Shown one piece after another: positions 13,267 through 58,638 of a DNA stretch of 64,000 nt. Both the position numbers and the translations under genes were made by a program. Position 1 is the stretch's first letter; every line of letters starts with the position of its first letter. The DNA lies in assembly GCA_016791025.1 (NCBI GenBank), contig JAEUNX010000082.1:33487-97486 (forward strand), given 5' to 3'. This DNA comes from Zoogloeaceae bacterium (GTDB lineage Bacteria > Pseudomonadota > Gammaproteobacteria > Burkholderiales > Rhodocyclaceae). The notes under the pieces were generated by a model. That model made no database searches, was not told the origin of the DNA, and saw nothing but the letters and a program-made list of their open reading frames with translations.

Positions 13267-14273
13267 GGTCGCGCCTCCCTGAACCCCACCGCTTCAACCT
13301 CGAGCAATAACTCGGAACGACAAACATCTGCCTGAAGAAAGATCGCCGGAGCCACCGCGCCGACGCGGCTGCGAAGGACATCGCATACCTGTGCGTAATC
13401 TCCGGGGTGACGGACATAGACGCGATAGGTGAGCTCCGACAGCCCAAAGCCCGCGTCGGGGCTAATCTCCGCCGCGCGGGCGAGCAGCGCCTCGATGTTG
13501 TCGAGGGACTCATGGCATTGCCGGGCCGCATCCCCGGTATGCAGCGTGGCGTGGCCGACAATGCTGGCCGTGCCCGAAATAAAAAGCACCGCCTGTCGAT
13601 CCAGGCGCACCAGGCCGGCGCGGGAAAACGTCGGACTTGCGGGGCCGTATTCCGGTGGATAGTCATAGGCGCTGATCTGGCGGGGATTTTCGATCGCAAG
13701 CAGGGGCTGGAATCCCGCCAGGAAGGCTACCGACACCGGCCCCCCTGCCAGGCCCAGGGCACTGGCCGCTGGCACAGCCCCCCGCACAGCCCGTCCGGCC
13801 GCCATAAAGGCATGCTGCCGTCCCTGATTGAACTGACGATAGCGTTCCAACCCGTCCGTTTCGCGGTTGATGTCGGCAAGAAAATTCCAGACTCGCCAAA
13901 GATGGGGTATCCCCTGGCTCGCAGCCAACGCGAAGACCTTTTCATAGGCCACCCGCCCCGCCGCCTGAAGGGTGGTCTCGTCGGCACCTCGGAGCGCCAC
14001 CGCCTCGGGCACCTCGACCACCGCAAACAGGACGCCACCCTGGCGCGCCCAAGACACCCCATGACCAGTCCCGGTTTCAACGGGTCCGTCACTACGCCAC
14101 ATCTCGAAAAGCGCCGCGGAAGATGCGCCCAGAAGCGGCGCCACCACACGCTGGACCGGTAGTGGCACAGAATCCGGCCCGACGTCAGACCCGAGCCGAA
14201 CGGCTCCCAACCCAGCCATCCCAGGGGGACGGTCCTCCCCGCCAGCCGCAAGAATGTCGAGTCGCAAGCTCAC
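13263..14273 (-). CDS. FkbO/Hyg5/XanB2-type chorismatase (hydroxybenzoate-forming)
   Basis: C-terminal YjgF/RidA-like block FISGTASIVGHATLHTGDAARQCHESLDNIEALL, preceded by ENPRQISAYDYPPEYGPASPTFSRA. Start is uncertain: GTG 14273 abuts the upstream TAG, with an alternative ATG at 14219. Confidence 0.7.
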   Translation of the reverse strand: MSLRLDILAAGGEDRPPGMAGLGAVRLGSDVGPDSVPLPVQRVVAPLLGASSAALFEMWRSDGPVETGTGHGVSWARQGGVLFAVVEVPEAVALRGADETTLQAAGRVAYEKVFALAASQGIPHLWRVWNFLADINRETDGLERYRQFNQGRQHAFMAAGRAVRGAVPAASALGLAGGPVSVAFLAGFQPLLAIENPRQISAYDYPPEYGPASPTFSRAGLVRLDRQAVLFISGTASIVGHATLHTGDAARQCHESLDNIEALLARAAEISPDAGFGLSELTYRVYVRHPGDYAQVCDVLRSRVGAVAPAIFLQADVCRSELLLEVEAVGFREARP

Positions 14274-15649
14274 TAGGCGTTGTACAAAGCCGCGTCGTCG
14301 ACCTTGCGGATGTTCAAGCGCCGGCGCCGCCACCCTTGGAGAGCCCGGCGGGGCTGGACGATATTGGCGACGTAGTAAATCGTCTTGAAGATCCGCAATG
14401 ACCGCCAGATCGGTGTCGAACCGAATATGTCCCCAGCCAATACGGAAAGCAATGCCTCCTTCACCCGGAAGATGTTCTTCGGGTCCATGAAGAACTCCCG
14501 CATGATGGGATTGGTGACCCGATAGATGAACCACGAAAACTCTTTGGGGCCCCGCCGCATGAGCCGGTCGAAGCGCCTGAGGGCAGCCCGCGCCTCGGCC
14601 GGGCGCGACAGACAGGTGTCGATCACCTCTGCCGCGACCATCCCGCTGTTCATCGCCAGCAACACGCCAGAAGAAAAGACCGGGTCGATGAAGGCAAAGG
14701 CATCCCCGAGCATGACGTAATTGGGGCCGTGATTGCGCTCGGCTGTGTAAGAGAAGTTACCTGTGGCTTCCACCTTGGTGACAAGAGCCGCCCCATCAAG
14801 CCGCGCCGCAAGGGCCGGGCAACTATCGATGCCATCAAGAAAATAGCGCTCTAGGCTGCGAGTTCCCTTGGTCTTCATGAAGTACGGCCAAGTCACCATA
14901 CCCACGCTGGTGATGCCGTTCTGCATCGGAATGAACCAGAACCAGCCATGCTCGAACCAGAAGATCGTGATGTTGCCTTCCTCGGTTCCTGCATGCCGCC
15001 TGGCCCCGCGGAAGTGGCCATAGACCGCCGAGCTGTTGTGACGCGGATTGCGGTGTTTGATCTGGAATCGGTTAGCGAGAAAGGTTTCTCGGCCAGAGGC
15101 GTCCACGAGAAAGCGGGCTTCCCATTCGCTTTCACGTCCGTCGTCATGGGCGGCGGTAACCACGACCGACTGATCCGCCTGGAAGACCACATCGCGCGCC
15201 CTGCACCCCTCCTCAACCTGCACGCCCTGGCGCGCCGCGTTGCGGATCAGGATCTCGTCAAACTCTTCACGCCGAACCTGGTAGGCGTAGGGCATGGATT
15301 TATCCCAGGCATCGGCAAAATGGAAGACTTGGGGTTTGTCGTGAAACGGTGAAACGAACTCGGCCCCAGGCTTGTGCATGCCAATGGCCCGAACCTCATC
15401 CGCGACCCCAAGCGTTTCAAAAAGCGGCAGGTTGGCCGGAAGCAGGGATTCACCAATATGAAAGCGTGGGTGGCGCGCCTTCTCCAGCACCACGACGTCA
15501 TAGCCCTTGCGGGCGAGCATCGGCGCGACGGTGGCGCCCGCCGGCCCCCCGCCGATCACGATCACATCGCACCGCTGGCGTACCGATTCTGGATTGTCCC
15601 CTTGCAACACGGCCACCTCACCCAAACCCGGCGTCTCGCAGAAGATCAA
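14273..15649 (-). CDS. Flavin-dependent halogenase
   Basis: VIVIGGGPAGAT dinucleotide fold plus GWFWFIP, the WxWxIP halogenase signature. The listed ORF starts at TTG 15649; the true start may be an internal GTG. Confidence 0.75.
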   Translation of the reverse strand: MIFCETPGLGEVAVLQGDNPESVRQRCDVIVIGGGPAGATVAPMLARKGYDVVVLEKARHPRFHIGESLLPANLPLFETLGVADEVRAIGMHKPGAEFVSPFHDKPQVFHFADAWDKSMPYAYQVRREEFDEILIRNAARQGVQVEEGCRARDVVFQADQSVVVTAAHDDGRESEWEARFLVDASGRETFLANRFQIKHRNPRHNSSAVYGHFRGARRHAGTEEGNITIFWFEHGWFWFIPMQNGITSVGMVTWPYFMKTKGTRSLERYFLDGIDSCPALAARLDGAALVTKVEATGNFSYTAERNHGPNYVMLGDAFAFIDPVFSSGVLLAMNSGMVAAEVIDTCLSRPAEARAALRRFDRLMRRGPKEFSWFIYRVTNPIMREFFMDPKNIFRVKEALLSVLAGDIFGSTPIWRSLRIFKTIYYVANIVQPRRALQGWRRRRLNIRKVDDAALYNA

Positions 15650-17123: not shown

Positions 17124-17229
17124 CTTCGCGCCTGACCCTTGATTGGAAGCCGCGCTGGCCGGACAAGGGAATCCGGTTTGCGCCCTCGGGGATCAGCCTT
17201 GGGCCAGGCGCGGCAAACTGGCTATCGGG

Positions 17230-18268
17230 TCATGCGGCCCCGCGCGCCGGCAAGGCCACCACCTCCGCCCCGGCCTTGAGGCGATCCAGATAGTCTGCCC
17301 ATCGCTGCATCATGGCCCGCCGCGCCTTGAGGAACTTCGTCCCGTTGTAGGCCGTGCCCAGGGCGTCGGGCACACAGTGGGCTAGCTGGTGTTCGATCAC
17401 GTGTTGGTCGAATTCGAGCACCTCATGAAGAATGGTCCGCGCCATCGCCCTAAAGCCGTGGCCGGTCATCCCGGTCTTGGTGTCGTAGCCCATCCGGCGC
17501 AGGGCTGCGTTCACCGCCGCGTCGCTCATCGGTTTCTTGGGATCGCGGCCCGCGAACACATGAGCACCGCGGCCGGTCAGGGGGTGCAGGTCTCGCAGGA
17601 TCACCACCGCCTGGGAGGGCAGCGGGACAAGGTGGGGCTGCCGCGCCTTCATCCGATCGGGCGGGATGTTCCACTCCCCTTTCTCCAGGTCGAATTCCGC
17701 CCATTCCGCCCGGCGCAGTTCGCCAGGCCGGACAAATAGCAGCGGGGCCAGTTTGAGGGCTGATTGCACGATCAGGGTGCCCCGGAAGGCTTCGATCGCT
17801 CGCAGCAGCGCCGCCACCTCGGCGGGCTCGGTAATCGCGGCCATGTGCTTCTCCCGGGTGGGAGGAAGGGCGCCCAGCAGGTCGCCGGTGGGATCGCGCT
17901 GAGCCCGGCCGGTCGCCACGGCATAGCGGAAGACCTGTCCGCAATTCTGGAGGGCACGGTGGGCCGTTTCCAGCCTTCCGCGGGCCTCGATACGTCGAAC
18001 GGTCGCCAGCACATTGGGGGCGGCCAGGTCGGCAATGGGCCTGCCGCCGATCCACGGGAAGATGTCGCGCTCCAGGCGGCGGATGATCTTATCTGCGTTG
18101 CCTGGTGCCCAGGGACAGCAGCTTTTCCTTACCCCCAAATCGGTACTTCAGCCGCCACCACTTACCCCCGTTGGGGGTAATCAGCAGGAACAGCCCTTTC
18201 TCGTCAGCCGCCTTGACGGGTTTTTCGCCGGGCTTGAGGGCGCGGATCGCGGTATCGGTCAGGGGCAT
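17230..18268 (-). pseudogene. P4-type tyrosine integrase, internally deleted and frameshifted
   Basis: The N-terminal arm domain MPLTDTAIRALKPGEKPVKAADEKGLFLLITPNGGKWWRLKYRFGGKEKLLSLG (ORF 18089..18334) stops after ..GTRQRR. The catalytic part (ORF 17230..18138: ...RPGELRRAEW...HGFRAMARTIL...HQLAH...Y) is in another frame. About 70 aa of linker normally found between the two is missing. Confidence 0.8.
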
Positions 18269-18542: not shown

Positions 18543-18907
18543 TGGTGGAGCCGGGGGGAATCGAACCCCCGTCCGCAAGCCCTCCACAGGAAGCTCTACA
18601 TACTTAGCCTGGCAATTTGGATTTAACCGTCGGTTTAGCCACCAGGCAGGCCGACCGCCAGCGAGTCACCTTGGATTTAGTTTGGCGTCAAGTAACCCGA
18701 CGCCTCACGATTCCCTGTGAATGACACTGCAATCGAGTTGCCCCGAGTCCGGCCCAGAGACATGCCGGTGCAGCGGCTTAGGCCTTAAGCGGCCAGAGCG
18801 AAACGCTCGTCGTTGGCGTTTGTTAGTTTCCAGTGGATTTACGAGGGGACTGGTCCTCGGTATGCACTTCACCGCTTTGCGACCCACGTCGAAGCCAGGT
18901 CGGCCCC
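18543..18907 (-). ncRNA. ssrA: tmRNA (SsrA)
   Basis: Reverse complement starts GGGGCCGACCTGGCTTCGACGTGGG and ends GGACGGGGGTTCGATTCCCCCCGGCTCCACCA. The tag reading frame GCC AAC GAC GAG CGT TTC GCT CTG GCC GCT TAA = ANDERFALAA lies at 18785..18817. Confidence 0.95.
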
Positions 18908-24032: not shown

Positions 24033-25322
24033 TCAGCCCGGCCCCGAGCGCGGTGGCGCGAAATCGATCGCACTAGGCCGGTCCGCCAGGTGCAGGGTGG
24101 TGGATGCGGGCGGCGTGGTGGCAACAATCTGGCCATTTCGCACCACCGCCAGCCGGGTCGCCCGCCGGCGCAGGGCATCCACCGGATCCTGGGCCTGGAG
24201 CAAGACAAAATCGGCCCGGCACCCCGGGGTGAGTCCGTAATCCGGCAGGCCCAGCACCTGGGCCGCCGTGGTGGTCACAGCGGCAAAACAGGCCCGCATT
24301 CCGTCCTGACTGGTCATCTGAGCCACATGGAGCCCCATGGCCGCCACCTCCAGCATGTCGGCCGACCCCAGGCTATACCAAGGATCCATCACGCAATCGT
24401 GGCCGAAGGCCACCGGTACGCCCGCCGCGAGCAACTCGGGGACACGGGTCATGCCCCGCCGCTTGGGGTAGGTATCATGGCGGCCCTGGAGGGTGATGTT
24501 GATGAGGGGATTGGCAATGGCGGAAAGACCCGCTTCGGCCATGAGCGGAAGCAGTTTTGACACGTAGTAGTTGTCCATGGAATGCATGGACGTGAGGTGG
24601 GACCCCGTCACTCGGCCCTGAAGCCCCAGCCGCTGCGTCTCGCAGGCCAATACCTCCACATGGCGGGAATGGGGGTCGTCGGATTCGTCGCAGTGCATAT
24701 CTACCGGCAAGCCCCGCTCGGCCGCCAACTCGCACAACTTACGCACCGATTCGGCCCCCTCAGCCGTGGTGCGCTCGAAGTGCGGAATGCCGCCCACCAC
24801 GTCGACCCCCATATCCAGCGCCCGGACGAGGTTGTCGTAGGCGCCAGGGCTGCGCAGCAGGCCATCTTGGGGAAATGCCACCAACTGCAGATCGAGATAG
24901 GGACGGACCCGGTCCCGGACGTGCAAAAGAGCCTCCACGGCCAGGAGACGAGGATCGCAGACATCCACATGGCTGCGAATGGCCAACAGCCCCCGGGCCA
25001 CCGCCCAATCGCAGTAGGCCATTGCCCGGTCCACCAAGGCCTCCTGGGTCAGATGTGGCTTGAGCTCGCCCCAAAGGGCAATCCCTTCCAGGAGGGTACC
25101 GCTGCGATTGACCCGGGGTAATCCGTAGGACAAGGTCGCATCCAAATGGAAGTGGGCATCGACGAAGGGCGGCGTCACCAATTGGCCGGCGGCATCGAGC
25201 TCCCGCCCCCCCGGTGCGGTCACTTTGGCATCCACCACGCGGATACGACCGTCGGCAACACCGATGTCGATACCTTTGCGCCCGTCGGGCAGGGTGGCAT
25301 TACGCACAACCATGTCAAGCAT
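24033..25322 (-). CDS. codA: Cytosine deaminase
   Basis: PPFVDAHFHLD metal motif and amidohydrolase fold. Start taken at [11 protein letters not shown] (25322); an alternative Met lies 9 nt downstream. Confidence 0.8.
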   Translation of the reverse strand: MLDMVVRNATLPDGRKGIDIGVADGRIRVVDAKVTAPGGRELDAAGQLVTPPFVDAHFHLDATLSYGLPRVNRSGTLLEGIALWGELKPHLTQEALVDRAMAYCDWAVARGLLAIRSHVDVCDPRLLAVEALLHVRDRVRPYLDLQLVAFPQDGLLRSPGAYDNLVRALDMGVDVVGGIPHFERTTAEGAESVRKLCELAAERGLPVDMHCDESDDPHSRHVEVLACETQRLGLQGRVTGSHLTSMHSMDNYYVSKLLPLMAEAGLSAIANPLINITLQGRHDTYPKRRGMTRVPELLAAGVPVAFGHDCVMDPWYSLGSADMLEVAAMGLHVAQMTSQDGMRACFAAVTTTAAQVLGLPDYGLTPGCRADFVLLQAQDPVDALRRRATRLAVVRNGQIVATTPPASTTLHLADRPSAIDFAPPRSGPG

Positions 25323-25998
25323 CTTGCCCCTCCCTCGCGATCTCGGTGCGGCCTCCCTCGTCGTCAAGACCGCAGCCGCGCAACACCAGATTCAAGACGT
25401 GGGCCGTGGCGCGGCGATGATCAAGGGTGCCCAGCGCCCGGCGGCCCAACACAGCGCAGACCTGGACCTCGAAATCAGCATAGGTCTGAGTCAATGCCCA
25501 CAGGCTGATGAAGAGATGGACCGGGTCCACCGGCGCAATCCGGCCGGCCTGCACCCAACCTTGGACGATCTCGGCCTTGTCCTCCACCTGCTCTCGCAAG
25601 GTTTCCCGCAGGAAGTTACCGATCTCCGGGGCGCCGTGGAGCAGCTCGTTGGCGAAGACGCGGGACGCCTCGGGCCGCTGTGCCGACAGTCTCATCTTCG
25701 CCTGAATGTAATGGCTCAGGGCGTCCCGGGGATCGGCCTCGGCAGTGATACGGTCGGTTTCCGCCAGCCAGAGGCGAAGAATGTTGGCCAGCACCGCCCG
25801 GTAGACGTCGGCCTTGGTGCCGAAATAGTAATGGACATTGGATTTCGACAGCCCTGCTTCCCGGGCAATTTCAGCCATGGTGGCCCCCTGGAACCCCCCG
25901 CGGGCGAAGACCCGCTCAGCGGCCTGCAGGATGGCAGATTCCTGCTGCTGGCGGATCCGGCCACCACCGGCCTCCCGCATCCGCACCACGGCCTTCAC
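25315..25998 (-). CDS. TetR-family regulator, RutR-like
   Basis: [33 protein letters not shown]. The ligand-domain blocks [25 protein letters not shown] resemble E. coli RutR as I recall it. GTGA overlap with the upp stop. Confidence 0.7.
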
Positions 25999-26627
25999 TT
26001 GGTGCCGAAGATCCGATCGCCAGCGTCCCCCAAGCCGGGGACGATGTAGCCGTGGTCGTTGAGATGATCATCCACCGCGGCCGTGGTGATGGGCACGTCC
26101 GGGTGGGCAGCGCCCAGGGCGGCCAGCCCCTCCGGAGCGGCCAGAAGACAGACGAACTTGAGGCTCGAAACTCCGGCTTCCTTGAGCCGTGAAAGCGCCG
26201 CAGACGCCGAGTTTCCCGTCGCAAGCATCGGATCTACCACAATGACCAGACGGTCTTCGACGTCGTCCGGGAGTTTGAAGTAATACTCCACCGCCTCGAG
26301 ACTTTCCGGATCCCGATAGAGCCCGATGTGCCCCACCCGCGCACCGGGCAGGAGGTCGATCATCCCATCGAGCATCCCGTTGCCGGCGCGAAGGATGGAT
26401 ACGAGACACAACTTCTTGCCGCTGATCACTGGCGCCTCGCACTCGGCCACCGGCGTGGTGACCCGGATCTTTTCAGTCGGCAGGTCGCGAGTCACTTCGT
26501 AGGCAAGCATGGAAGCGATCTCGCGCACCAGACGGCGGAAGTTATCAGTGGTCGTGGCCGCGTCGCGGGCCATGGTGAGCTTGTGCTGCAGCAGCGGGTG
26601 ATCAACAACGGTCACGCAATGGGCCAT
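25995..26627 (-). CDS. upp: Uracil phosphoribosyltransferase
   Basis: [17 protein letters not shown]-terminus, PRPP motif [12 protein letters not shown]. Start moved to ATG 26627, which has a GAGGAAG RBS. Confidence 0.9.
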
Positions 26628-26651
26628 GGCTTCACTTCCTCGAAACAAGAT

Positions 26652-27896
26652 TCAGAAGACGGTTCCATCACTGCGGATGCGAAGCGGCGGCTCTCCGCCG
26701 GGCCGTCGTTGGGCGGCAATCCGGCGGCCGGCGGCCCAGGTGCCTCCTTCGAGGACCCTCGCCAGGGGAAACGCCTCGGCCGACACGCCCAGTTCCTCGC
26801 GCACCGCTCCCGCCAGCAGGTCCAGCCCCATCACGGTCAGGGCCCGCCACTCCACCACCGGAGCGGCATCGACGGTCCAATCCTGGGCCCAGAACCCCGG
26901 GTCCTTCGGTTCGATGACGCCGAAGTCGAGCAGGAGGCCGCCATTGCGGTACTCCGGCAGTCCGGTCAGGCAATCCAGACCGGTCACCTTCAAACCGGCC
27001 CATTCGAGGGGTTCGAGCAGGGAATAGGTGAGCCATTGGGTCAGCTTGTGGAAGGGCACCAGCCCGTCGCTCGGGGCAGGGTGGGACCAACAATCTCCCA
27101 GGGATACCCCGTCGAGTTCGATCCTCCCGGGCCACACCGGGCCCAACACCCGCAGCAGGGTCACAAGCACGAACTCAGCTTCGAGGGTCCCTCCGTCGGC
27201 GTGGGTCAGCAGGTAATCAAGCAGATGACCCGCCCGGGCCGGTGTGCCAAACACCTCCGCGTGGGCACCCATGACGGTACCCAACCGCCGCAGCAACTCG
27301 GTGCGCCCCTCCACGCCCACCATCGGATTGGCGGGCCCGACCTGGAAGAGCAGGGCCACGTGTTCGGGAATCAAGCGGTCGAGGGCCTGGGCGTCACAGC
27401 GGTGATGACGCCGGGGATCCCCCGACAGCGCCCCGCTGGCAAAAAGGGCAAGACTGGCCACCGCCAGACCTTCAGAACGGGTCAGAACCTGATGGCGGCC
27501 CGGCTCCTTGTAATGCCAATGGGGGCCCGCCCCGGCATCGAGCAGGACGCTCGGTATGACAAGATCGATGGCCACGCGGGACCGCTCCAGGGGATCGGCG
27601 GTCAAGCCCGCGTCGATCACCAGCTTGCCCCAACGATCTACGCCGCCCGCCTCGAAATGGCGCCAACGGCTGTGGTAGGGGACTGCCAGGGTCGGGTAGT
27701 TCTGCCGAATGGTCTGGGCCACGTAGTCGGCGGCTGCCGGAATTCGGTCAGGACGCCAGCGGAAGAAGGGCGACATGCCGCGCTCGACGTGATCGAGCAC
27801 CGCTCCGCAACGAGCGCGGATCGCGCCGGCCGTGAGGAGGGCCGCCGCGGGGTGATGGTCAGGGACACCTCCCAACCATTCCGGACCGGGTTTCAT
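26652..27896 (-). CDS. DUF1688 / URC4-like protein
   Basis: Start moved to ATG 27896 (MKPGPEW), an ATGA overlap with the upstream stop. About 414 aa. Family assignment is from recalled similarity (..YHSRWRHFEAGGVDRW.., ..GLPEYRNGGLLLD..). Confidence 0.65.
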   Translation of the reverse strand: MKPGPEWLGGVPDHHPAAALLTAGAIRARCGAVLDHVERGMSPFFRWRPDRIPAAADYVAQTIRQNYPTLAVPYHSRWRHFEAGGVDRWGKLVIDAGLTADPLERSRVAIDLVIPSVLLDAGAGPHWHYKEPGRHQVLTRSEGLAVASLALFASGALSGDPRRHHRCDAQALDRLIPEHVALLFQVGPANPMVGVEGRTELLRRLGTVMGAHAEVFGTPARAGHLLDYLLTHADGGTLEAEFVLVTLLRVLGPVWPGRIELDGVSLGDCWSHPAPSDGLVPFHKLTQWLTYSLLEPLEWAGLKVTGLDCLTGLPEYRNGGLLLDFGVIEPKDPGFWAQDWTVDAAPVVEWRALTVMGLDLLAGAVREELGVSAEAFPLARVLEGGTWAAGRRIAAQRRPGGEPPLRIRSDGTVF

Positions 27897-29137
27897 GCGT
27901 GAAGGCCTCGCCCTTTCGCCCGCGCCAGTTCCGCAGCTTCCGGTGCCACGCCGGCGCTGAAGTAACCGGCCGCCACCTTGGCGTCCATCTCCACTCGCGC
28001 GTCGGCAGGAATCAGCTGATCCGGAATCGCGACCCGCTCCACCACGTCGATACCGGCCGCGGCCAAGGCGCCGTGCTTCATGTTGCTCATCGATGCCCAG
28101 CGGTCGATGCGGGTAATGCCCAGCCAATGAAAGACGTCCGGCATCAGCTCCTGAAAGCGCATGTCCTGCACCCCGGCCACACACTCGGTGCGGGCGAAAT
28201 AGGTTTCCGCCCGGTCGCCCCCACGCTGGCGCTTGCGGGCGTTATAAACCAGAAACTTGGTGACTTCCCCGAGCGCCCGCCCTTCCTTGCGGTTGTACAC
28301 CACCAGACCGACGCCGCCCTGTTGGGCCATCTCGACGCAAATCTCGATGCCATGGGCGAGGTAAGGCCGGCAGGTGCAGATGTCGGAACCGAACACGTCG
28401 GATCCATTGCATTCATCATGAACGCGGCAGGCGACGCGGGTCTCCGGGCGCCCAAGCTTCTCGGCATCGCCGAAGAAATACAAAGTCATTCCTCCGATGG
28501 GTGGGAGGAACACCTTGAGATCGGGCCGGGTCACCAGTTCGGGAAACATTCCTCCGGTTTGCTCGAAGAGGGCGCGGCGCAGTACCCGCTCGGAAATCCC
28601 GAATCGGGCCGCCACGCCCGGGAGGTACCAGACCGGGTCCACCGCCGCCTTCGTCACCCGCACGTCCCCGTTTTCATAGAGGATGTCTCCGTCCGGGGCC
28701 AAGCGGCCGGCGAGGATGGCGTCGCGCAGTTCAGGCATATTGATGTGGGCCGTGGTCACGGCGATGGTCGGGCGGATGTCGAGTCCTGCGGCGATCTCCC
28801 TGGAGAAGGTTTCGGCCACCCGATGTCCCCAGGGATCCAGGGACACGATCTTCTCCGGGTCGCGCCACTGGGGATGCGGACCAAGAGAGGTGGCGGGCAC
28901 CGTATTGGTGAGGTCCGGTCGGTGATCGCCCCGCAGATTGCCCGCCGCCACGGCCAGCGCCCGATAGACCGAGTACGATCCGGAGTGGGTGCCGATCACG
29001 TTACGCATGGCAGGCGACGCCAGGCCGGCCACCAGGGGCCCCCGCTCAGCGGCGCTGGGGGCGCCCCATTGAATGGGCGGCATGGCTTGGGCGCCACGGC
29101 CCCGGGGATGGGAGGTCAACACGATATGGGAAGCCAT
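27893..29137 (-). CDS. GTP cyclohydrolase II family protein with long N-terminal extension (URC1-like)
   Basis: Start moved to ATG 29137 (MASHIVL) with an AGGAG RBS. RVHDECNGSDVFGSDICTCRPY is the RibA-type zinc/Cys motif. About 200 aa of extra N-terminal domain is present, as in URC1. Confidence 0.7.
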   Translation of the reverse strand: MASHIVLTSHPRGRGAQAMPPIQWGAPSAAERGPLVAGLASPAMRNVIGTHSGSYSVYRALAVAAGNLRGDHRPDLTNTVPATSLGPHPQWRDPEKIVSLDPWGHRVAETFSREIAAGLDIRPTIAVTTAHINMPELRDAILAGRLAPDGDILYENGDVRVTKAAVDPVWYLPGVAARFGISERVLRRALFEQTGGMFPELVTRPDLKVFLPPIGGMTLYFFGDAEKLGRPETRVACRVHDECNGSDVFGSDICTCRPYLAHGIEICVEMAQQGGVGLVVYNRKEGRALGEVTKFLVYNARKRQRGGDRAETYFARTECVAGVQDMRFQELMPDVFHWLGITRIDRWASMSNMKHGALAAAGIDVVERVAIPDQLIPADARVEMDAKVAAGYFSAGVAPEAAELARAKGRGLHA

Positions 29138-29153: not shown

Positions 29154-29169
29154 CTGACTATTTGGTCAG
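29154..29169. promoter_or_regulatory. RutR-box-like palindrome
   Basis: CTGACTATTTGGTCAG compared with the recalled E. coli RutR consensus TTGACCAnnTGGTCAA (11 of 14 specified positions). Lies 17-32 nt upstream of the 29137 start codon. Confidence 0.45.
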
Positions 29170-29177
29170 CTTTTATG

Positions 29178-29194
29178 AAGCCAGATCCATGCCA
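29178..29194 (-). promoter_or_regulatory. Sigma54-type -24/-12 promoter candidate
   Basis: Minus strand TGGCATGGATCTGGCTT, i.e. GG-N10-GC, matching TGGCACG-N4-TTGCW at all but 2 specified positions. The predicted start site falls at the edge of the RutR-like box. Confidence 0.4.
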
Positions 29195-29384
29195 GCGCCC
29201 AAACCCCGCTTCCTGCCATCCTCGCCCAAAGGCCGCACCACCAGTGCCCACGGGGCCCCGCGCCCTGCGCTCGACTGGTGCGCCGGGGCATGCCCATCCG
29301 GCGGTGTTAAGCTGACTGCCAATTTTTCCGACAGGGTTTCCGCCCCCACCGCCTGGCTGAAACCCAACAACGGGAGATTCTCCC

Positions 29385-30776
29385 ATGGGCTATGCCGCGA
29401 CCATCGCCTCCAAGCGCTACGTTTTTTCCGACTTGCGCACCCTGCTCGCCCGGGCATCCCCCCTGCGTTCGGGCGACCAATTGGCGGGCCTGGCTGCGGC
29501 CAGCGCGGTCGAACGCATGGCGGCCCGCCTGGCCCTGGCGGACCTCCCCCTGCGCCACTTCCTCGACGAGGCGGTGATTCCGTATGAAGCGGATGAAGTC
29601 ACCCGCCTGATCGTGGACACCCACGACGGCGCTGCTTTCGCCTCCGTGGCCCACCTGACCGTGGGGGAGTTTCGCGAATGGCTGCTAGACGACGCCACCG
29701 ACACCGCCGCCCTGGCGCACGTCGCTCCCGGACTGACGCCGGAAATGGTGGCGGCGGTAAGCAAGCTGATGCGCCAACAGGACTTGATCTCGGTCGCGCG
29801 CAAATGCCGCGTTATCACCGGCTTCCGTGACACGATAGGCCTGCCGGGGCGCTTGGCCGTGCGGCTCCAGCCCAACCACCCGACGGACGACCCTCGTGGC
29901 ATCGCAGCCTCGCTTCTGGACGGCCTGCTCTATGGCTGCGGCGACGCGGTTATCGGCGTGAACCCGGCCGGTGACAGCGTACCGGCCATCATGGATCTCC
30001 TTCGGCGTCTGGATGAGGTGCGAGAGCGCTTCGAGATTCCAACCCAGACCTGCGTGCTTACCCACGTGACGACGACCCTTCAGGCCATCGAACGGGGTGC
30101 TCCGGTCGATCTGGTCTTTCAATCCATCGCCGGCACCGAGGCGGCCAATCGCGGATTTGGTATCCACCTGGCCTTGCTGGCCGAAGCCCAGGCAGCCGCC
30201 CTCGAACTCAACCGCGGCACCGTGGGCCGGAATGTCATGTATTTCGAGACCGGCCAGGGCTCCGCGCTATCGTCCCAGGCCCACCAGGGCGTCGACCAGC
30301 AAACTTGCGAGGCGCGCGCCTACGCCGTGGCCCGTCATTTCCAGCCCCTCATCGCCAACACCGTGGTCGGCTTCATCGGGCCGGAATACCTCTTCGACGG
30401 CAAGCAGATCATCCGGGCCGGCCTGGAGGATCATTTCTGCGGCAAGCTTCTGGGCGTGCCCCTAGGCTGCGACGTCTGCTATACCAACCATGCCGAGGCG
30501 GACCAGGACGACATGGATGCCCTTCTCACCCTCCTGGGGACCGCCGGGGTCACCTTCATCATGGGCGTGCCGGGGGCCGACGACGTCATGCTCAACTATC
30601 AGAGCACCTCGTTTCATGATGCCCTGTACCTGCGCGGCCTGCTGGGACTGCGGCCGGCGCCGGAGTTCGAGGCCTGGCTTGCCCAGGTCGGCATCACCGC
30701 GACGAGCGGGGCCCTGCAGGGCCTGCCGCCGCAGATTGCCGCGGCCCTGGAGGATCTCACCGGAGGCCGGCCATGA
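29385..30776 (+). CDS. eutB: Ethanolamine ammonia-lyase large subunit
   Basis: 463 aa. Typical EutB N-terminus (YVFSDLRTLLARASPLRSGDQLAG) and length. GGGAGA RBS. Confidence 0.9.
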   Translation: MGYAATIASKRYVFSDLRTLLARASPLRSGDQLAGLAAASAVERMAARLALADLPLRHFLDEAVIPYEADEVTRLIVDTHDGAAFASVAHLTVGEFREWLLDDATDTAALAHVAPGLTPEMVAAVSKLMRQQDLISVARKCRVITGFRDTIGLPGRLAVRLQPNHPTDDPRGIAASLLDGLLYGCGDAVIGVNPAGDSVPAIMDLLRRLDEVRERFEIPTQTCVLTHVTTTLQAIERGAPVDLVFQSIAGTEAANRGFGIHLALLAEAQAAALELNRGTVGRNVMYFETGQGSALSSQAHQGVDQQTCEARAYAVARHFQPLIANTVVGFIGPEYLFDGKQIIRAGLEDHFCGKLLGVPLGCDVCYTNHAEADQDDMDALLTLLGTAGVTFIMGVPGADDVMLNYQSTSFHDALYLRGLLGLRPAPEFEAWLAQVGITATSGALQGLPPQIAAALEDLTGGRP

Positions 30777-31552
30777 GCCGCGGACTACGCCCGGACCCCT
30801 GGACCGTGCTGCGGCGCCTGACGCCGGCCCGGGTTGCCCTGGGTCGTGCCGGGCACAGCCTGCCAACCCAGGAGATCCTGCAATTCGGCGTGGCCCACGC
30901 CCAGGCCCGCGACGCGGTGCACGCTCCCCTGCACGTCGCCACCCTGGCCGCCAACCTCGCCCCCCTCGGCCAGCCGGTGCTGACCGTGGTGAGCAGCGCC
31001 CCCGACCGCCCGACGTATCTGATGCGGCCGGATCTCGGCCGACGTCTTGACCCGGCGAGCGCCCAGCACCTCGACCAACAACGTCCCGGCCCCCACGACC
31101 TCCTTTTCGTCATCGGGGACGGGCTATCCGCCCTTGCCGTAGCGCGCCACGCCGTCCCCTTGCTGACCCACTTCCATTTGGCCCGCCCACCCGAGTGGCG
31201 CATTGGGCCATTGGTCATCGCCAGTCAATGCCGAGTGGCCCTGGGCGACGAGATCGGCGAGCGGCTGGGCGCGCCCATGGTCGCGGTCTTGATCGGCGAG
31301 CGCCCGGGCCTGAGTTCACCGGACAGTCTGGGCATCTACCTCACCCGCCACCCCCGGGTCGGCCGGCTGGATGCCGAGCGGAACTGCCTGTCAAATATTC
31401 GCCCTGAGGGCTTGCCTTACGTCGAGGCCGCTCGTCGGCTCGCCTGGCTTTGCCAGGCCGCGATCCAGCTTGACGCCACGGGGATCGCCCTCAAGGATGG
31501 CAGCATCGACCCGGCGCATCTGGCCCCGCCAAACGCCGCAGCAGGAGCCTGA
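30773..31552 (+). CDS. eutC: Ethanolamine ammonia-lyase small subunit
   Basis: ATGA overlap with eutB. LTPARVALGRAG...LIGERPGLSSPDSLG pattern. Confidence 0.85.
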   Translation: MSRGLRPDPWTVLRRLTPARVALGRAGHSLPTQEILQFGVAHAQARDAVHAPLHVATLAANLAPLGQPVLTVVSSAPDRPTYLMRPDLGRRLDPASAQHLDQQRPGPHDLLFVIGDGLSALAVARHAVPLLTHFHLARPPEWRIGPLVIASQCRVALGDEIGERLGAPMVAVLIGERPGLSSPDSLGIYLTRHPRVGRLDAERNCLSNIRPEGLPYVEAARRLAWLCQAAIQLDATGIALKDGSIDPAHLAPPNAAAGA

Positions 31553-40046: not shown

Positions 40047-40242
40047 TCGCGCTTCAGGCCACCGCAATCCCGCGCCCCCTCAATGGGGCGGCCGGGGTTT
40101 GTGAAAACTCGGCGGCACCAAGGGAATTGGCCCGGCGGGACTGCGAACGGAAGTGATCGTCAATCCGGCCCAGCGACAGCGGCGGTTTGACACCCATCCC
40201 CGCCTCCCGCACCATTCGCCTTCCTTTTTGCACGTCCGTCGC

Positions 40243-41577
40243 ATGGCCGCCGCCGATCTGCTTCAGCGCTCCCTGGGCGCCGTCTGGCACCCCTGCACCC
40301 AGATGCGCCACCACCAACCTGGGGCCACCTCGCCACTTCCTCTCGTTCCCGTCGTCCGGGGTCAGGGGGTGTGGCTGGAGGATGCCTCGGGTCACCGCAT
40401 ACTCGACGGCATCAGTTCCTGGTGGGTCAATCTCTTTGGCCATTGCCACCCCCAGATCGGGGCCGCAATCAAGGCCCAGCTCGACACCCTGGAGCACGTG
40501 ATGCTGGCGGGCTGTACCCATCCGCCGGTGGTGGAACTCTCCGAGCGGCTCGCGGCCCTCACCGGCCACCGTCTCGGGCATGCCTTTTATGCCTCGGATG
40601 GCGCCTCGGCCACCGAGATTGCGCTCAAGATGAGCGCCCATTACTGGCGCAATCAAGGTCAGACGGAAAAATGCCGGTTCATCAGCCTGGCTGGCGGTTA
40701 TCACGGCGAAACCGTCGGCGCCCTGGCGGTCACCGACGTCCCGCTGTTTCGTGAGGCGTACGCGCCCCTGATCCTCGCCGGCACCAGCGTGATGAGTCCG
40801 GACGCCCGCCAAGCCTGTGCCGGCGAAAGCCCAGCCGACGTGGCGCGCCGCGCCGCCCAGGCCCTGGAGGCCCACCTCGACGCCCATCACAGGGAAACCG
40901 CGGCGCTGATTGTCGAGCCCCTCGTCCAGGGGGCTGCTGGCATGGCCATGTACGACCCCAGCTACCTCCGCCACGCCCGAAGATTGTGCGATCGCTACGG
41001 GGTGCATCTGATCGCCGACGAGATCGCCATGGGTTGCGGCCGGACCGGCACCTTCTTCGCCAGCGAACAAGCGGAGATCTGGCCCGACTTCCTGTGCCTT
41101 TCGAAGGGCATCTCCGGAGGCTACCTCCCCCTCTCCCTGGTCCTCACGACCGATGGGGTGTTTGACGCCTTTCTCGATGACGACACGGCCCGGGGGTTCC
41201 TTCATTCCCATTCGTACACCGGCAATCCCCTGGCCTGCCGCGCTGCGCTGGCCACCCTGGATCTGTTCCGCGACGAAGACGTACTGACGGCCAATATCGA
41301 CCGCTCCCGCCGCCTGCGGGCCGCCTTCGACGCCCGGTTCGCGGATCACCCCCGCCTGCGCCACCAGCGCGCTCGGGGCATGGTTCTGGCCTTCGATGTG
41401 GCGGATGCCCCGCCCGATTTTTCCCGCCGCTTCTTTGCCGCAGGCCTGGAAGCCCGGGTGCTGCTGCGACCGATCGGCGCCACGGTGTACTTCATGCCCC
41501 CCTACGTGATCGATGGCGCGGAAATCGACCATCTGATGGACGGCGCCGCCGTCGCCCTTGAACGTGTCCTTGCCTGA
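40243..41577 (+). CDS. bioA: Adenosylmethionine-8-amino-7-oxononanoate aminotransferase
   Basis: Start moved to ATG 40243 (MAAADLLQRSLGAVWHPCTQM). SSWWVNLFGH and EIAMGCGRTGTFFA...LCLSKGISGGYLPL (PLP Lys). Confidence 0.9.
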   Translation: MAAADLLQRSLGAVWHPCTQMRHHQPGATSPLPLVPVVRGQGVWLEDASGHRILDGISSWWVNLFGHCHPQIGAAIKAQLDTLEHVMLAGCTHPPVVELSERLAALTGHRLGHAFYASDGASATEIALKMSAHYWRNQGQTEKCRFISLAGGYHGETVGALAVTDVPLFREAYAPLILAGTSVMSPDARQACAGESPADVARRAAQALEAHLDAHHRETAALIVEPLVQGAAGMAMYDPSYLRHARRLCDRYGVHLIADEIAMGCGRTGTFFASEQAEIWPDFLCLSKGISGGYLPLSLVLTTDGVFDAFLDDDTARGFLHSHSYTGNPLACRAALATLDLFRDEDVLTANIDRSRRLRAAFDARFADHPRLRHQRARGMVLAFDVADAPPDFSRRFFAAGLEARVLLRPIGATVYFMPPYVIDGAEIDHLMDGAAVALERVLA

Positions 41578-42745
41578 CTCGGTCCTGCGGGACGAACTCA
41601 TCGCCCATCTCGCCGCCCTGGACGAAGGGGCCCTGCGGCGTCGTCGGCGCACCGTGGAAGATCCCTGCGGCCCTCACGTCCGGGTGGACGGCCGTCCGAT
41701 GCTCGCCTTTTGCAGTAATGACTACCTGGGTTTTGCCGGCCACCCCCTGCTCGCGCAAGCCCTGCAGGAGGGGGCGGCCCGGTGGGGGGTCGGCTCCGGC
41801 GCCTCCCATCTGGTGAGTGGCCATTACCATGTCCATGAGGTTCTCGAATCTCGCCTCGCGGCCCTGGTGGGGCGCCCACGAGCCCTTTATCTCTCCACCG
41901 GCTACATGGCCAATCTGGGAATCCCCTCGGCCCTGGTCGGCCGGGGTGACGCCATCTTCGCCGACCGTCTGAACCATGCCTCCCTGGTGGATGGGGCCCG
42001 CCTGACCCGGGCCGACGTGCATCGGTATCCCCATGCCAACCTTGGCGCCCTGGCCCGTCAGTTGGAGGCCTGCCCGGCGCGGCGCAAACTGATCCTCACC
42101 GACGCCGTGTTCAGCATGGACGGAGACCTGGCGCCCCTGCCGGAACTGCTCGACCTTGCCGAACGGCACGACGCCTGGCTGGTGGTGGACGACGCCCACG
42201 GCTTTGGCGTGCTGGGCCCCCGGGGCGCCGGGGCGGCTGCCCACTTCGGCCTGCCCGACACCTGGCGGGTGGTTTACATCGGCACTCTGGGCAAAGCGGC
42301 CGGGGTGTCCGGCGCCTTCGTCGCGGGTGACGAGGTGGTGATCGAGACCATCCTTCAGGCCGCCCGCCCTTATCTCTTCACCACCGGCTCACCCCCCGCC
42401 CTGGCCCACGCCTTATTGACGAGCCTGGATCTCATCGCCCAAGGGGATGGACGCCGGGCCCATCTCACCGTCCTCATCGCATCGCTACGCGCGGCGCTGC
42501 CCCTGCAGCGTTGGTCCCTCCTTCCCTCGCCCTCGCCCATTCAGCCGGTGGTCATTGGTGACAATGCCGAGACGCTTCGAGTCGCCCGGGCCTTGTGGGA
42601 GCAGGGCTTATGGGTGCCCGCCATCCGTCCTCCCACGGTTCCGCAGCATTCAGCCCGCCTGCGGATCTCGCTCTCCGCCGCCCACACCCTGGAGGACGTT
42701 GCCCATTTGGCCGAGGCCCTGCTCCGCCTGGAGGCATCTGCATGA
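41558..42745 (+). CDS. bioF: 8-amino-7-oxononanoate synthase
   Basis: FCSNDYLG and [13 protein letters not shown] (PLP Lys). The start overlaps the bioA end, and the exact start codon (TTG/GTG) is uncertain. Confidence 0.9.
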
Positions 42746-43479
42746 AGTCCCCATTGGTCATGCTCCACGGCTGGGGCTTGTCTCCGGCGGTCTTCGGCGG
42801 GCTGCGCCCCCAGTTGCAAGGTTTCTCACGCATCGTCGCGCCCTGGTTGCCGGGACATGGCCCCGCCGAAGCAGCCCACGGCCCCGAACTGGCTGACTGG
42901 ACCGACCTGCTGGTCCCGGACCTTCCCGACCAAGCGGTAGTGCTGGGATGGTCCCTCGGGGGAATGATTGCCCTTGATCTGGCACGCCGTCATCCCCGCA
43001 AGGTCGCCCGATTGATTCTGGTGGGGGCCACGCCGCGCTTTGTTGCCAAGGATGACTGGCCCCATGGCCTCGCGCCCGCCGTGGTCGAGGAATTTCGCGC
43101 CGGGTTTGCGGCCGATCCCGCCGCCACCCTGCGACGCTTCATCGCCCTGCAGACCCTCGGCGATGCCCGCCGCAAGGCGGTGGCCCTGGCCCTGTCCGAG
43201 GGGCTTGCGCCCGTTGGACAGGCCGAAGGCTGCGCCCCAGCCGAGGGATTGCGTCTCCTCGCGGAGACCGATCTACGATCGATCGTAGCGGACGTCGGCG
43301 TCCCCACCCGGGTCCTCCACGGCCGCCACGATGCCCTCATGTCTGCCGAGGCGGCAGTCTGGCTGGCGGACCATTTACCCGACGGTCGCCTGAGCATTTT
43401 CGAGCAGGCCGGCCATGCACCCTTCCTCTCGATGCCGGCGCAATTTGCCGTCCTCGTTGATGGCTTCGCCCATGAGTGA
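42742..43479 (+). CDS. bioH: Pimeloyl-ACP methyl ester esterase
   Basis: Start moved to ATG 42742 (ATGA overlap). Alpha/beta hydrolase with nucleophile elbow GWSLGG. Confidence 0.75.
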   Translation: MKSPLVMLHGWGLSPAVFGGLRPQLQGFSRIVAPWLPGHGPAEAAHGPELADWTDLLVPDLPDQAVVLGWSLGGMIALDLARRHPRKVARLILVGATPRFVAKDDWPHGLAPAVVEEFRAGFAADPAATLRRFIALQTLGDARRKAVALALSEGLAPVGQAEGCAPAEGLRLLAETDLRSIVADVGVPTRVLHGRHDALMSAEAAVWLADHLPDGRLSIFEQAGHAPFLSMPAQFAVLVDGFAHE

Positions 43480-44257
43480 ACCTCCGGTGCGACGCCAAGT
43501 CCGGGCTGCCTTCGACAAGGCGGCAGGCAGTTATGACGCTGCGGCCACGGTGCAGCGTGAAGTCTGCCGCCACCTTGATGCCCTGGCCCGGCGCCGTCCC
43601 TGTGCGACACCACATCGCATTCTCGACGCCGGCTGCGGCACCGGATTTGGTCTCCCGTTTCTCCGCGGCCGCTTTCCTGCCAGCGAGGTTCTGGCACTGG
43701 ATTTCGCGCCGGCCATGCTGCAGCGGTTGCCGCCGGGTCTGGCGCTGGCCCTGGGCGGCGACATGGAGCACCTGCCCCTGGCGAACGCCTCGGTGGACGC
43801 CGTGTGGTCCAGCCTCGCGCTTCAGTGGTGCCATCCTGGCCGTGCTCTGGCGGAAGCGACTCGGGTGCTTCGGCCTGGCGGCCAGGCCTGGCTCGCCACC
43901 CTGGGGCCTGCCACGCTTTGGGAACTGCGCGAGGCCTTCGCCGGACTGGACGATGCCGAACATGTGCTCGGCTTCCACGATCTGACGGCCTGGACGGCGG
44001 ACGCTACCCAAGTCGGCCTTGCAATCATCGCCACTGAGCAATTCGCCACCCCCGCCACAGCCCCCAACCTGCGGGAACTCCTGCGGGACATCAAGGCCAT
44101 CGGCGCGCACAATGTGGGCAGCGGGCGCCGCCGGGCGCCCCTCGGCAAGGCCGCCTGGCAGATCCTGGAAGCACGTTACGAAACCCATCGCCGCGCCGAC
44201 GGCTGGCTCCCCGCCACTTATGACGTGATTTTGCTGCATCTGGAGAAACCACTATGA
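43472..44257 (+). CDS. bioC: Malonyl-ACP O-methyltransferase
   Basis: Start moved to ATG 43472. FDKAAGSYDAAATVQR and the SAM motif ILDAGCGTG. Confidence 0.8.
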   Translation: MSEPPVRRQVRAAFDKAAGSYDAAATVQREVCRHLDALARRRPCATPHRILDAGCGTGFGLPFLRGRFPASEVLALDFAPAMLQRLPPGLALALGGDMEHLPLANASVDAVWSSLALQWCHPGRALAEATRVLRPGGQAWLATLGPATLWELREAFAGLDDAEHVLGFHDLTAWTADATQVGLAIIATEQFATPATAPNLRELLRDIKAIGAHNVGSGRRRAPLGKAAWQILEARYETHRRADGWLPATYDVILLHLEKPL

Positions 44258-44943
44258 GTTCGCGGGCCTTCTTCGTCACCGGTACCGATACCGAGGTCGG
44301 CAAGACCTTTACGACTTGCGCGCTGATCCACGCCACTCGTGTCCTCGGGCTGTCGGCGGTCGGGATGAAGCCGGTGGCGGCAGGAGCCGATGAAGTGGAC
44401 GGCCGCGCCATCAACGATGATGTCGCGGCGCTGATCGCGGCAAGCAGCGTCATTCGCCCGGAGCGCGAGGTCAATCCCTACCTCCTGCGCGCGCCGGTCG
44501 CACCCCATATTGCAGCCCTGGAGGATGGCATCCAGCTCTCCCCGATTGCGATCTTCACCGCACTCAAGAATCTGCGCGCCGCAGCGGACGTGGTGTTCGT
44601 CGAGGGCGTGGGCGGATTTCGTGTTCCCCTCGGGCCAGCCTATGACAGCGCCGACCTGGCCCGGGACCTGGGCCTGCCGGTGATCTTGGTGGTGGGCATG
44701 AGACTGGGGTGCCTCAGCCATGCCCTTCTCACCGCCGAGGCCATCGACCGGCGCGGGCTCAGCTTGGCCGGCTGGGTTGCCAATCAAATCGATCCGGCCA
44801 TGCTGCGCTTTCAGGAGAATCGCGAGGCCCTGGCCTCCCGAATTGGTGCCCCGCTCCTCGGCACGCTTGCCCACCAGGCAGCCCCCCTGCCCGACGCCCG
44901 CGAGGCCGCCGGGCAGTTGAACGTCGCCACCCTCCTGGCCTGA
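44254..44943 (+). CDS. bioD: Dethiobiotin synthase
   Basis: FFVTGTDTEVGKT P-loop and VEGVGG. ATGA overlap with bioC. Confidence 0.9.
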   Translation: MSSRAFFVTGTDTEVGKTFTTCALIHATRVLGLSAVGMKPVAAGADEVDGRAINDDVAALIAASSVIRPEREVNPYLLRAPVAPHIAALEDGIQLSPIAIFTALKNLRAAADVVFVEGVGGFRVPLGPAYDSADLARDLGLPVILVVGMRLGCLSHALLTAEAIDRRGLSLAGWVANQIDPAMLRFQENREALASRIGAPLLGTLAHQAAPLPDAREAAGQLNVATLLA

Positions 44944-44965: not shown

Positions 44966-45760
44966 TCAGCGCCCCTGCCGCTGGCGAACCTGCTCGAACA
45001 GACAAATCGCCGCCGCCGCCCCCACGTTGAGGGATTCGACCCCAACCGTCATGGGAATCACCACCTGCCCCTGGGCCTGAGCCAAGAGCCCGGACGAAAG
45101 GCCCTGCCCTTCCGATCCGAGCAACCACGCCACCGGGCCCCGCAAATCCCAGTCGTAGAGCGACCGGGCGCCGGCCCCCACCCCGGTGGCGAGGCGGATG
45201 CCATGGAAATGGACAAGGATATCCTCGCCCTCGTCCGCCTCAATAATGTCGAGCACGAAATGGGCCCCCATCCCGGCCCGCAGAACCTTGGGGGACCAGG
45301 CCTGGGCGCAACCCGGCGTGAGGATTACCGTACCCACCCCGGCAGCCGCCGCGGTCCGCAAAATGGTGCCGACATTGCCGGCATCCTGGATTCGATCGAG
45401 TACCACCCAATCCCCGATCGCATCGCCCAGCGCCGGGCGCGGGGGCACAGCAAGAATCGCGAGGATGCCCGTGGGCGATTCCACTGGGCTTACCCAGGCG
45501 AAGAGCGGCCCCGCCAGGACGGTGGTCGGCCCATTCCACCGGCCGAGGATCTCCTGAACCTCCACCCGTGTCCGGGCAGGTTCGGCCACCACGAGTTCGA
45601 CCACCTTGGCCCGTGCGCCGAGGGCCGCATCGACCAGGTGGGGGCCATCGAGCACCGTCTGACCGGCCTCCCGCCGCGCACGGGCGTCATGGGCCAGGGC
45701 TCTAAGATGCTTGACGTGGGCGTTGTCCCGCGACGTGAGAACGCGATCGGGGTCGATCAC
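44966..45760 (-). CDS. TrmH/SpoU-family RNA 2'-O-methyltransferase
   Basis: Start set at GTG 45760 (GTGA overlap with the upstream stop). VLDRIQDAGNVGTILRTAAAAG, LLGSEGQGLS, IPMTVGVESLNVGAAAAICLFE. Confidence 0.75.
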   Translation of the reverse strand: MIDPDRVLTSRDNAHVKHLRALAHDARARREAGQTVLDGPHLVDAALGARAKVVELVVAEPARTRVEVQEILGRWNGPTTVLAGPLFAWVSPVESPTGILAILAVPPRPALGDAIGDWVVLDRIQDAGNVGTILRTAAAAGVGTVILTPGCAQAWSPKVLRAGMGAHFVLDIIEADEGEDILVHFHGIRLATGVGAGARSLYDWDLRGPVAWLLGSEGQGLSSGLLAQAQGQVVIPMTVGVESLNVGAAAAICLFEQVRQRQGR

Positions 45761-47976: not shown

Positions 47977-47980
47977 GACG

Positions 47981-50216: not shown

Positions 50217-50238
50217 CGGGGCACCCTCTGGGTCAGGG

Positions 50239-53111: not shown

Positions 53112-53117
53112 GGGAAT

Positions 53118-54485: not shown

Positions 54486-54505
54486 GCCCTGGAATTGGGA
54501 GGAAA

Positions 54506-57298: not shown

Positions 57299-57346
57299 TG
57301 ATGTGCCTGTCAGAGCGTTGCGGCGAACGCAGATCGACCCAGGGGG

Positions 57347-57904: not shown

Positions 57905-57912
57905 GGCGAACC

Positions 57913-58623: not shown

Positions 58624-58638
58624 GGGTTGGGGGACCCC

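Follow-up and report, generated by a model that had tools for sequence, protein, structure and literature searches.

What does a bacterium do with relatives of two fungal uracil-catabolic enzymes, URC1 and URC4, when their genes are packed into one operon with those for uracil phosphoribosyltransferase (upp), a RutR-like repressor and cytosine deaminase (codA)? The question is raised by 64,000 nucleotides (nt) of DNA from a Zoogloeaceae bacterium (GenBank assembly GCA_016791025.1, contig JAEUNX010000082.1, positions 33,487 to 97,486; "the window" hereafter means this whole stretch, numbered from its first letter). The answer defended here is that the region is very probably a bacterial URC-type operon for scavenging pyrimidine nitrogen, under RutR-type control. 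An earlier note on this DNA had described five head-to-tail open reading frames (ORFs), and a reading of the sequence locates them at precisely the coordinates that it gave:

27893..29137, minus strand: URC1-type cyclohydrolase (UrcA, probable UTP cyclohydrolase), 414 amino acids (aa); PF12471 and PF00925, PRK07198
26652..27896, minus strand: URC4/urg3 (DUF1688) protein, predicted Qng1-like N-glycosylase, 414 aa; PF07958
25995..26627, minus strand: uracil phosphoribosyltransferase (upp; URC6 equivalent), 210 aa; NF001097, TIGR01091
25315..25998, minus strand: RutR-like TetR-family repressor, from its sequence probably uracil-responsive, 227 aa; TetR_N and TetR_C_3; start codon uncertain
24033..25322, minus strand: cytosine deaminase (codA), 429 aa; PRK07572 / NF005748

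The junctions are tight, and the overlaps of 4, 4 and 8 nt claimed for them are borne out: the URC1 stop and URC4 start have ATGA in common (27893-27896), the upp stop and the regulator start have GTGA in common (25995-25998), and the regulator stop and codA start overlap by the 8 nt ATGCTTGA (25315-25322), while the URC4 stop and the upp start are 24 nt apart, with the ribosome-binding site GAGGAAG between them. For URC1, the ATG at 29137 is favored over a longer ORF from 29386 because AGGAG lies 7 nt upstream, homologs begin with MASH or MSDH, and the alignment to Protein Data Bank (PDB) entry 7EJ3 agrees. The GTG start of the regulator is uncertain, with an in-frame ATG 18 nt downstream. 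A scan of the operon for σ70 promoters found none; terminator-like matches inside genes were disregarded, their level being only modestly above that in shuffled sequences.

Who are the members of this unit? The upp product scores 289 bits with NF001097 (cut-off 114) and 273 bits with TIGR01091 (cut-off 208), and the codA product reaches 802 bits with the cytosine deaminase subfamily model PRK07572 / NF005748 (cut-off 438). Over its whole length, the codA product can be aligned with E. coli cytosine deaminase 1K6W (E 1e-115), and it keeps the metal and catalytic motifs of the E. coli enzyme: HxH, FPQ(D/E)G, IPHFE, SMHS and GHD..DPWY, together with Q156, H214/E217, H246 and D313. The second protein is a DUF1688 protein, as had been proposed: it matches PF07958 over its full length (474 bits, profile positions 2-420 of 420) and is 100% identical to the NCBI entry 'URC4/urg3 family protein [Zoogloeaceae bacterium]'. 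Profiles and junctions support a single, tightly packed transcription unit in which URC1-, URC4- and URC6 (upp)-type genes are joined by those for a cytosine deaminase and a RutR-type regulator.

The first gene needs more care, as its product belongs to a family named after another reaction. It combines a GTP_CH_N domain (PF12471, 278 bits, residues 3-193) with a GCH-II domain (PF00925, 49 bits, residues 230-369) and scores 771 bits with NCBIfam PRK07198 (NF005536; cut-off 403). Scores with the RibA and RibBA models lie at 39-57 bits against cut-offs of 148-764 (TIGR00505, 46 against 206; PRK00393, 57 against 148; RibBA models, 39-47 against 486-764), which, with the GTP_CH_N domain, upholds the view that the protein is not an orthodox RibA; the RibA-type Cys motif noted earlier is present as the Zn-binding C243-x10-C-x-C (C243 NGSDVFGSDI C T C). 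The belief that no bacterial version had been characterized is out of date, given a bacterial homolog with two crystal structures: the URC1-type protein is 67.7% identical over 409 aa to 7EJ3/7EEV. These structures are presumably those of the bacterial UTP cyclohydrolase (UrcA) that Zhang and coworkers are said to have reported in ACS Catal in 2021, as judged from deposition-era accession codes and domain architecture; a theoretical study of "UTP cyclohydrolase" reportedly exists as well. A 2025 paper (PMC12507026) cites Andersen et al. and a 2021 ACS Catal article whose title names UTP cyclohydrolase. The ring-opening step would fall to URC1 on the strength of its 68% identity to the solved bacterial enzyme taken as UTP cyclohydrolase, and the name "GTP cyclohydrolase II" carried by NF005536 and by 7EJ3/7EEV is a probable annotation error. 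The name of the enzyme also points to UTP rather than uridine monophosphate (UMP), the ring-opening substrate first suggested, so that housekeeping UMP and nucleoside diphosphate kinases would be needed.

How special is this gene set? Implicit in the earlier note was that it is rare, a view that does not hold: a scan of one genome per species finds a relative encoded in at least 576 species genomes, with URC1-URC4(-upp) conserved across Beta-, Alpha- and Gammaproteobacteria and Cyanobacteria, and an exhaustive hidden Markov model (HMM) search returns 3,331 clusters at 50% identity, 1,044 of them with E ≤ 1e-30. Neighborhoods of 20 kb were read in the best 80 loci, which come from these four bacterial groups and include Zoogloea, Cupriavidus, Noviherbaspirillum, Azospirillum, Methylobacterium, Kaistia, Bradyrhizobium, Marinobacterium, heterocystous cyanobacteria and others. 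In 79 of them, URC1 directly precedes URC4 and is read from the same strand, and upp follows URC4 directly in 70; a RutR-like gene (at least 50% identity) is found in 16 and codA in 14. In Cupriavidus necator, the five genes stand in the same order and carry the same Pfam labels, and the exact order recurs in Zoogloea. The locus is a further instance of a bacterial URC cluster that is widespread, already named and partly characterized, and the claim of novelty is not supported. Fusions of a URC1-type cyclohydrolase to DUF1688 (P0359, 786 aa; P0339, 477 aa and N-terminally truncated) would add Rosetta-stone support, read from their sequences, for a functional URC1-URC4 link.

Two side observations belong to this survey. 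In other Cupriavidus species, a PnrA/Bmp-type ATP-binding cassette (ABC) transporter, made of a binding protein, a double ATPase and two permeases, lies between the regulator and codA; it is a frequent neighbor of the trio (loci L005-L019 of Cupriavidus, L022 of Azospirillum, L069 of Dulcicalothrix, and cyanobacteria) and is absent from the operon in the window. The cyanobacterial DUF1688 proteins P0126, P0178, P0201 and P0214 are named 'uracil phosphoribosyltransferase' by their sources, probably in error.

If the enzymes are so widespread, what is new here? Two things are: the proposed role of URC4, taken up below, and the regulatory architecture, in which a σ54-type promoter stands beside a RutR box and the regulator keeps the residues that contact uracil. 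The regulator consists of TetR_N and TetR_C_3 (YcdC-like) domains, and its residues 17-208 align without gaps to E. coli RutR (3LOC, E 4e-40). L74, W77, L78 and W167, which in RutR bind uracil and exclude thymine, are all identical and in the same positions, in keeping with the RutR-like TetR identity given in the earlier note; the protein stays under the RutR equivalog cut-offs (TIGR03613, 190 bits against 368; NF011584, 157 against 230). Upstream of URC1, a 247-bp intergenic region common to the operon and the divergent eutBC genes carries two predicted elements:

29179..29194, minus strand: predicted σ54-type promoter element TGGCATGGATCTGGCT, GG-N10-GC, -24/-12 spacing
29154..29169, no strand assigned: predicted RutR-box-type palindromic operator CTGACCAAATAGTCAG, 11 of 14 positions matching the E. 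coli RutR consensus

The consensus is TTGACCAnnTGGTCAA (PMC2475637). The operator extends from 11 nt past the -12 GC to 17 nt before the URC1 ATG; from its position relative to the σ54-type element, it covers the predicted transcription start. The other box-bearing loci, 18 in number, all have a box of the form [C/T]TGACCAnnTGGTCAG at 17-40 nt upstream of URC1 and include all 16 loci shown to encode a RutR-like regulator; boxes in relatives match the consensus at 10-13 of 14 positions, mostly 11-13, and betaproteobacterial, alphaproteobacterial and cyanobacterial loci without the regulator lack the box. The σ54-type element fits the form TGGCAC-N5-TTGCW, with GG and GC ten bases apart, and is kept at 17 of 19 box-bearing sites (the window and the 18 loci), in a register to the operator that is fixed within groups (10-11 nt in the Zoogloea group, 18-20 nt in Cupriavidus). 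The pattern TGGCAY-N5-TBGCH occurs 21 times on both strands of 658 kb of betaproteobacterial loci, 17 times at this very site upstream of URC1. Promoter element, RutR box and conserved uracil contacts imply joint control, predicted from sequence, by nitrogen limitation (σ54 with an activator) and by uracil (derepression).

The same motifs recur elsewhere in the window. Further TGGCAY-N5-TBGCH matches lie at 45188-45203 and 143-158 (minus strand), the former directly beside the beginning of a 208-aa ORF that is unannotated and runs on the other strand. A RutR box, TCGACCACCTGGTCAA, with 13 of 14 consensus positions, is found at 58295-58310 inside pyrH (57913-58623, minus strand); in 100 shuffles, no match with one mismatch or fewer turned up. 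PyrH makes uridine diphosphate (UDP), needed to reach UTP, the presumed substrate of URC1. Most RutR sites in E. coli are intragenic and have no known effect. The regulator of the operon may have a second target in the pyrH box, or the box may be a coincidence of coding sequence.

What does URC4 do? No chemistry is known to have been settled for URC4/DUF1688 since 2008, the year in which the URC pathway was defined. Modeled with high confidence by AlphaFold2 from 46 diverse sequences (predicted local distance difference test score, pLDDT, 92.1; predicted template modeling score, pTM, 0.91), the protein has 11 significant Foldseek matches in the PDB, all of them chains of Qng1/DUF2419 (E 4e-9 to 1e-7, probability 1.0; TM 0.71-0.76, normalized by target), and the next match has E > 1. 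These matches place the model in the two-lobed helix-hairpin-helix fold with the insertions specific to Qng1. Two independent proteins cover collinear halves of the Pfam Q_salvage model: residues 133-202 of the cyanobacterial DUF1688 protein P0233 match positions 39-108 (25.0 bits, equal to the cut-off), and residues 342-462 of the fusion P0339 match positions 150-277 (a borderline 22.5 bits), beginning exactly at a VPFHK motif. Qng1 hydrolyzes the N-glycosidic bond of queuosine-5'-monophosphate (PMC9881137). In its active site, K199, which follows a β-hairpin inserted in a helix-hairpin-helix motif, positions the ribose; D231 acts as nucleophile or stabilizes an oxocarbenium; Y232 stacks against the sugar; the 5'-phosphate is bound by K233 and R80; and the carboxylate of an invariant C-terminal Y323 completes the site (PMC9881137). 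By secondary-structure register, these landmarks map onto the URC4 model with a constant offset of +84/85:

Qng1 hairpin R185-Y198: URC4 hairpin 269-281 (register mapping)
Qng1 K199: URC4 K284 (register mapping)
Qng1 D231-Y232-K233: URC4 E315-Y316-R317 (register mapping)
Qng1 strand L244-Y246: URC4 strand 328-330 (register mapping)
Qng1 helix from P248: URC4 short helix 333-336 (register mapping)
Qng1 C-terminal Y323: URC4 C-terminal ...SDGTVF414 (register mapping)

EYRNGG and the C-terminal Phe are present in 81 of 81 DUF1688 proteins, and FHKLxQW in 76 of 81. In L. kluyveri, URC4 has been placed at the conversion of ribosylurea to urea (PMC7530994). On fold, motifs and these yeast genetics, we lean towards URC4/DUF1688 being a divergent helix-hairpin-helix-fold homolog of Qng1 that may work as a phosphoribosylurea (or ureido-ribotide) N-glycosylase, with K284, E315-Y316-R317 and its own C-terminal carboxylate (F414) as the putative catalytic set. 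A literature search, with subscription journals outside its reach, found no paper linking DUF1688/URC4 with Qng1/DUF2419. If true, this assignment would close the URC pathway mechanistically and would show a DNA-glycosylase-derived fold recruited twice for the catabolism or salvage of free nucleotides; it gives URC4 a concrete, testable function with named candidate residues, and C-terminal tags may inactivate the protein, as they do Qng1.

How would the pieces work together? CodA would deaminate cytosine to uracil and NH3, and Upp would combine uracil with phosphoribosyl pyrophosphate (PRPP) to yield UMP, both steps being predicted from strong homology; housekeeping PyrH and Ndk would then raise UMP to UTP. 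The URC1-type enzyme, a Zn-dependent relative of GTP cyclohydrolase II, is expected from its sequence to turn UTP into pyrophosphate and a hydrolytically ring-opened or cleaved ribotide, and URC4, as its fold, motifs and yeast genetics suggest, would split N-ribosylurea 5'-phosphate or a ring-opened ureido-ribotide into urea and ribose-5-phosphate. Urea and the C3 fragment would be handled by enzymes encoded elsewhere. Transcription would start from the σ54-type promoter, under nitrogen-status control through an enhancer-binding activator, as its conservation suggests; the operon's own RutR-like repressor would block it at the palindrome over the predicted start until uracil releases the repressor. 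Of the "complete" cytosine/uracil module in the earlier note, the URC-pathway reading is supported; "complete" is too strong, because genes for urea degradation, malonic-semialdehyde conversion and transport were not seen among the scanned ORFs of the window; the operon and these ORFs hold no rut or pyd genes either.

What weighs against the operon being a URC-type scavenging system whose URC4 is a glycosylase? The following points all do. (i) The operon and the scanned ORFs contain no transporter. (ii) They hold no urea-degrading enzyme (urease, urea amidolyase) either. (iii) NtrC-type sites are matched 21 times in the window, where chance would give 24, and the only intergenic match, at 29266-29282, has 3 mismatches and is not evidence. 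(iv) The equation of 7EJ3/7EEV with UTP cyclohydrolase, and the product of that step, are drawn from a citation title. (v) The fusions call for caution, since a frameshift at the ATGA overlap could mimic one or both. (vi) URC4 from the window gives no match to PF10343 (Q_salvage) even at E ≤ 10; searches of PDB sequences with the single protein, the 46-sequence profile, P0233 and an 84-column active-site sub-profile found no Qng1, the sub-profile returning ankyrin-repeat noise only, so that the link to Qng1 rests on the fold and the marginal Pfam matches. (vii) The residue mapping comes from secondary-structure register and those marginal matches, not from superposed residues, and the putative nucleophile of URC4 is a Glu (E315), where Qng1 has an Asp.

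If the link to Qng1 is set aside, what else might URC4 be? It might be no glycosylase at all and act on a fragment derived from the base, for example by hydrolysis of a ureidoacrylate or carbamate intermediate or by aiding ring opening, while an unlinked nucleosidase cuts the N-glycosidic bond after dephosphorylation, giving free ribosylurea as in yeast. Free ribosylurea, not its phosphate, is indeed the intermediate reported in L. kluyveri (PMC7530994), and both the replacement of the catalytic Asp by Glu and the marginal similarity to Qng1 would sit well with such a role. Yet no metal-hydrolase or amidase fold is detected in URC4, its only structural relatives found by Foldseek in the PDB being nucleotide N-glycosylases; the set of Lys, acid-Tyr-base and C-terminal aromatic residue, as mapped by register, is collinear and invariant, including the basic residue that in Qng1 binds the 5'-phosphate; and no further hydrolase is conserved in the URC cluster. 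We regard this alternative as unlikely, though to be taken seriously.

Could the whole operon instead serve pyrimidine salvage and homeostasis, with CodA and Upp making UMP and the URC1/URC4 pair acting as a valve for overflow or detoxification? In favor, codA and upp count among the classic genes of salvage, the targets of RutR in E. coli include genes of pyrimidine synthesis such as carAB (PMC2475637), and the near-perfect box inside pyrH of the window would fit. But the conserved σ54-type promoter points to control by nitrogen status, most lineages keep the URC1-URC4-upp core without codA or the regulator, and in yeasts the URC pathway supports growth on uracil as the sole nitrogen source (PMC7530994); a salvage-only role is improbable. 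It is scarcely credible that the first gene encodes a normal GTP cyclohydrolase II of the riboflavin pathway and stands by chance beside pyrimidine salvage genes: its product borrows that name from its equivalog and PDB entries and has the Zn-binding Cys triad of RibA, but the RibA/RibBA scores given above, a 190-aa GTP_CH_N domain that RibA does not have, adjacency to DUF1688 across phyla, fungal URC1 orthologs that are induced by uracil and genetically required for its catabolism (PMC2174524, PMC7530994), and the citation of the family as UTP cyclohydrolase in PMC12507026 all speak against it.

The divergent eutB and eutC genes (ethanolamine ammonia-lyase) occupy 29385-31552, so that two nitrogen-yielding catabolic units stand back to back across the 247-bp region; an M61 peptidase gene lies ~510 bp downstream of the operon. 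A transfer-messenger RNA (tmRNA) gene on the minus strand at 18543-18907, with the tag ANDERFALAA, precedes a phage-type integrase (17230-18138) and an int-alpA RNA (17136-17214); they are flanked by a stretch of lower GC content (~13-17 kb) that contains a Trp-halogenase-like flavoenzyme (14273-15649). The arrangement resembles a genomic island that has integrated at ssrA. Positions 40153-44943 and 46801-60366 are ordinary core genome, with biotin synthesis genes (bioA/bioF/bioD-like) and an lpxB-lpxA...uppS-frr-pyrH-tsf cluster.

How does this operon compare with systems already known? The bacterial UTP cyclohydrolase (UrcA; 7EJ3, 7EEV) has the two-domain architecture and the Zn motif of the URC1-type protein; 7EJ3 is from another organism, and the closest URC1 among the 80 loci is only 76% identical to it. 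With Qng1/DUF2419 (PDB 7U07, 7U91, 7UGK), the modeled URC4 would have in common the fold, the helix-hairpin-helix Lys after the inserted hairpin, the acid-Tyr-base motif at the ribose/phosphate site and the invariant C-terminal aromatic residue. URC4 is, however, ~90 residues longer at 14-19% identity, the base-binding D298 and W302 of Qng1 have no mapped counterpart, and URC4 is predicted to release urea or a ureido compound where Qng1 releases a 7-deazapurine.

The fungal counterparts, URC of Lachancea kluyveri and urg of S. pombe, have the same three core proteins (GTP_CH_N with GCH-II, DUF1688 and uracil phosphoribosyltransferase); in S. pombe, urg1, urg2 and urg3 are clustered and uracil-induced (PMC2174524). 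The trio is physically clustered on both sides, and uracil-responsive in fungi as it is predicted to be here. Unlike fungal URC, the window has a single polycistronic operon that includes cytosine deaminase; a TetR/RutR-type repressor takes the place of the Zn-cluster factor URC2, and a σ54-type promoter is added. The urea amidolyase (URC3,5), malonic-semialdehyde reductase (URC8) and permease of L. kluyveri are found neither in the operon nor in the scanned ORFs.

With E. coli rut, the operon would have its control logic in common. Its regulator falls into the subfamily of RutR (TetR_C_3), and the operator resembles the E. coli consensus; rut is reportedly dependent on σ54/NtrC, from work ascribed to Zimmer in 2000 and Loh in 2006, and its logic (nitrogen limitation AND uracil) would, by analogy, be that of the URC operon. 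The gene arrangement differs: the regulator is the fourth gene of its own operon in the window, whereas it is divergently transcribed in E. coli rut. The enzymes under control are unrelated, URC here and RutA-G in E. coli. A uracil-sensing repressor of the RutR type and a σ54-type promoter would thus be coupled to two chemically unrelated routes to pyrimidine nitrogen, a clean example of the reuse of a regulatory module.

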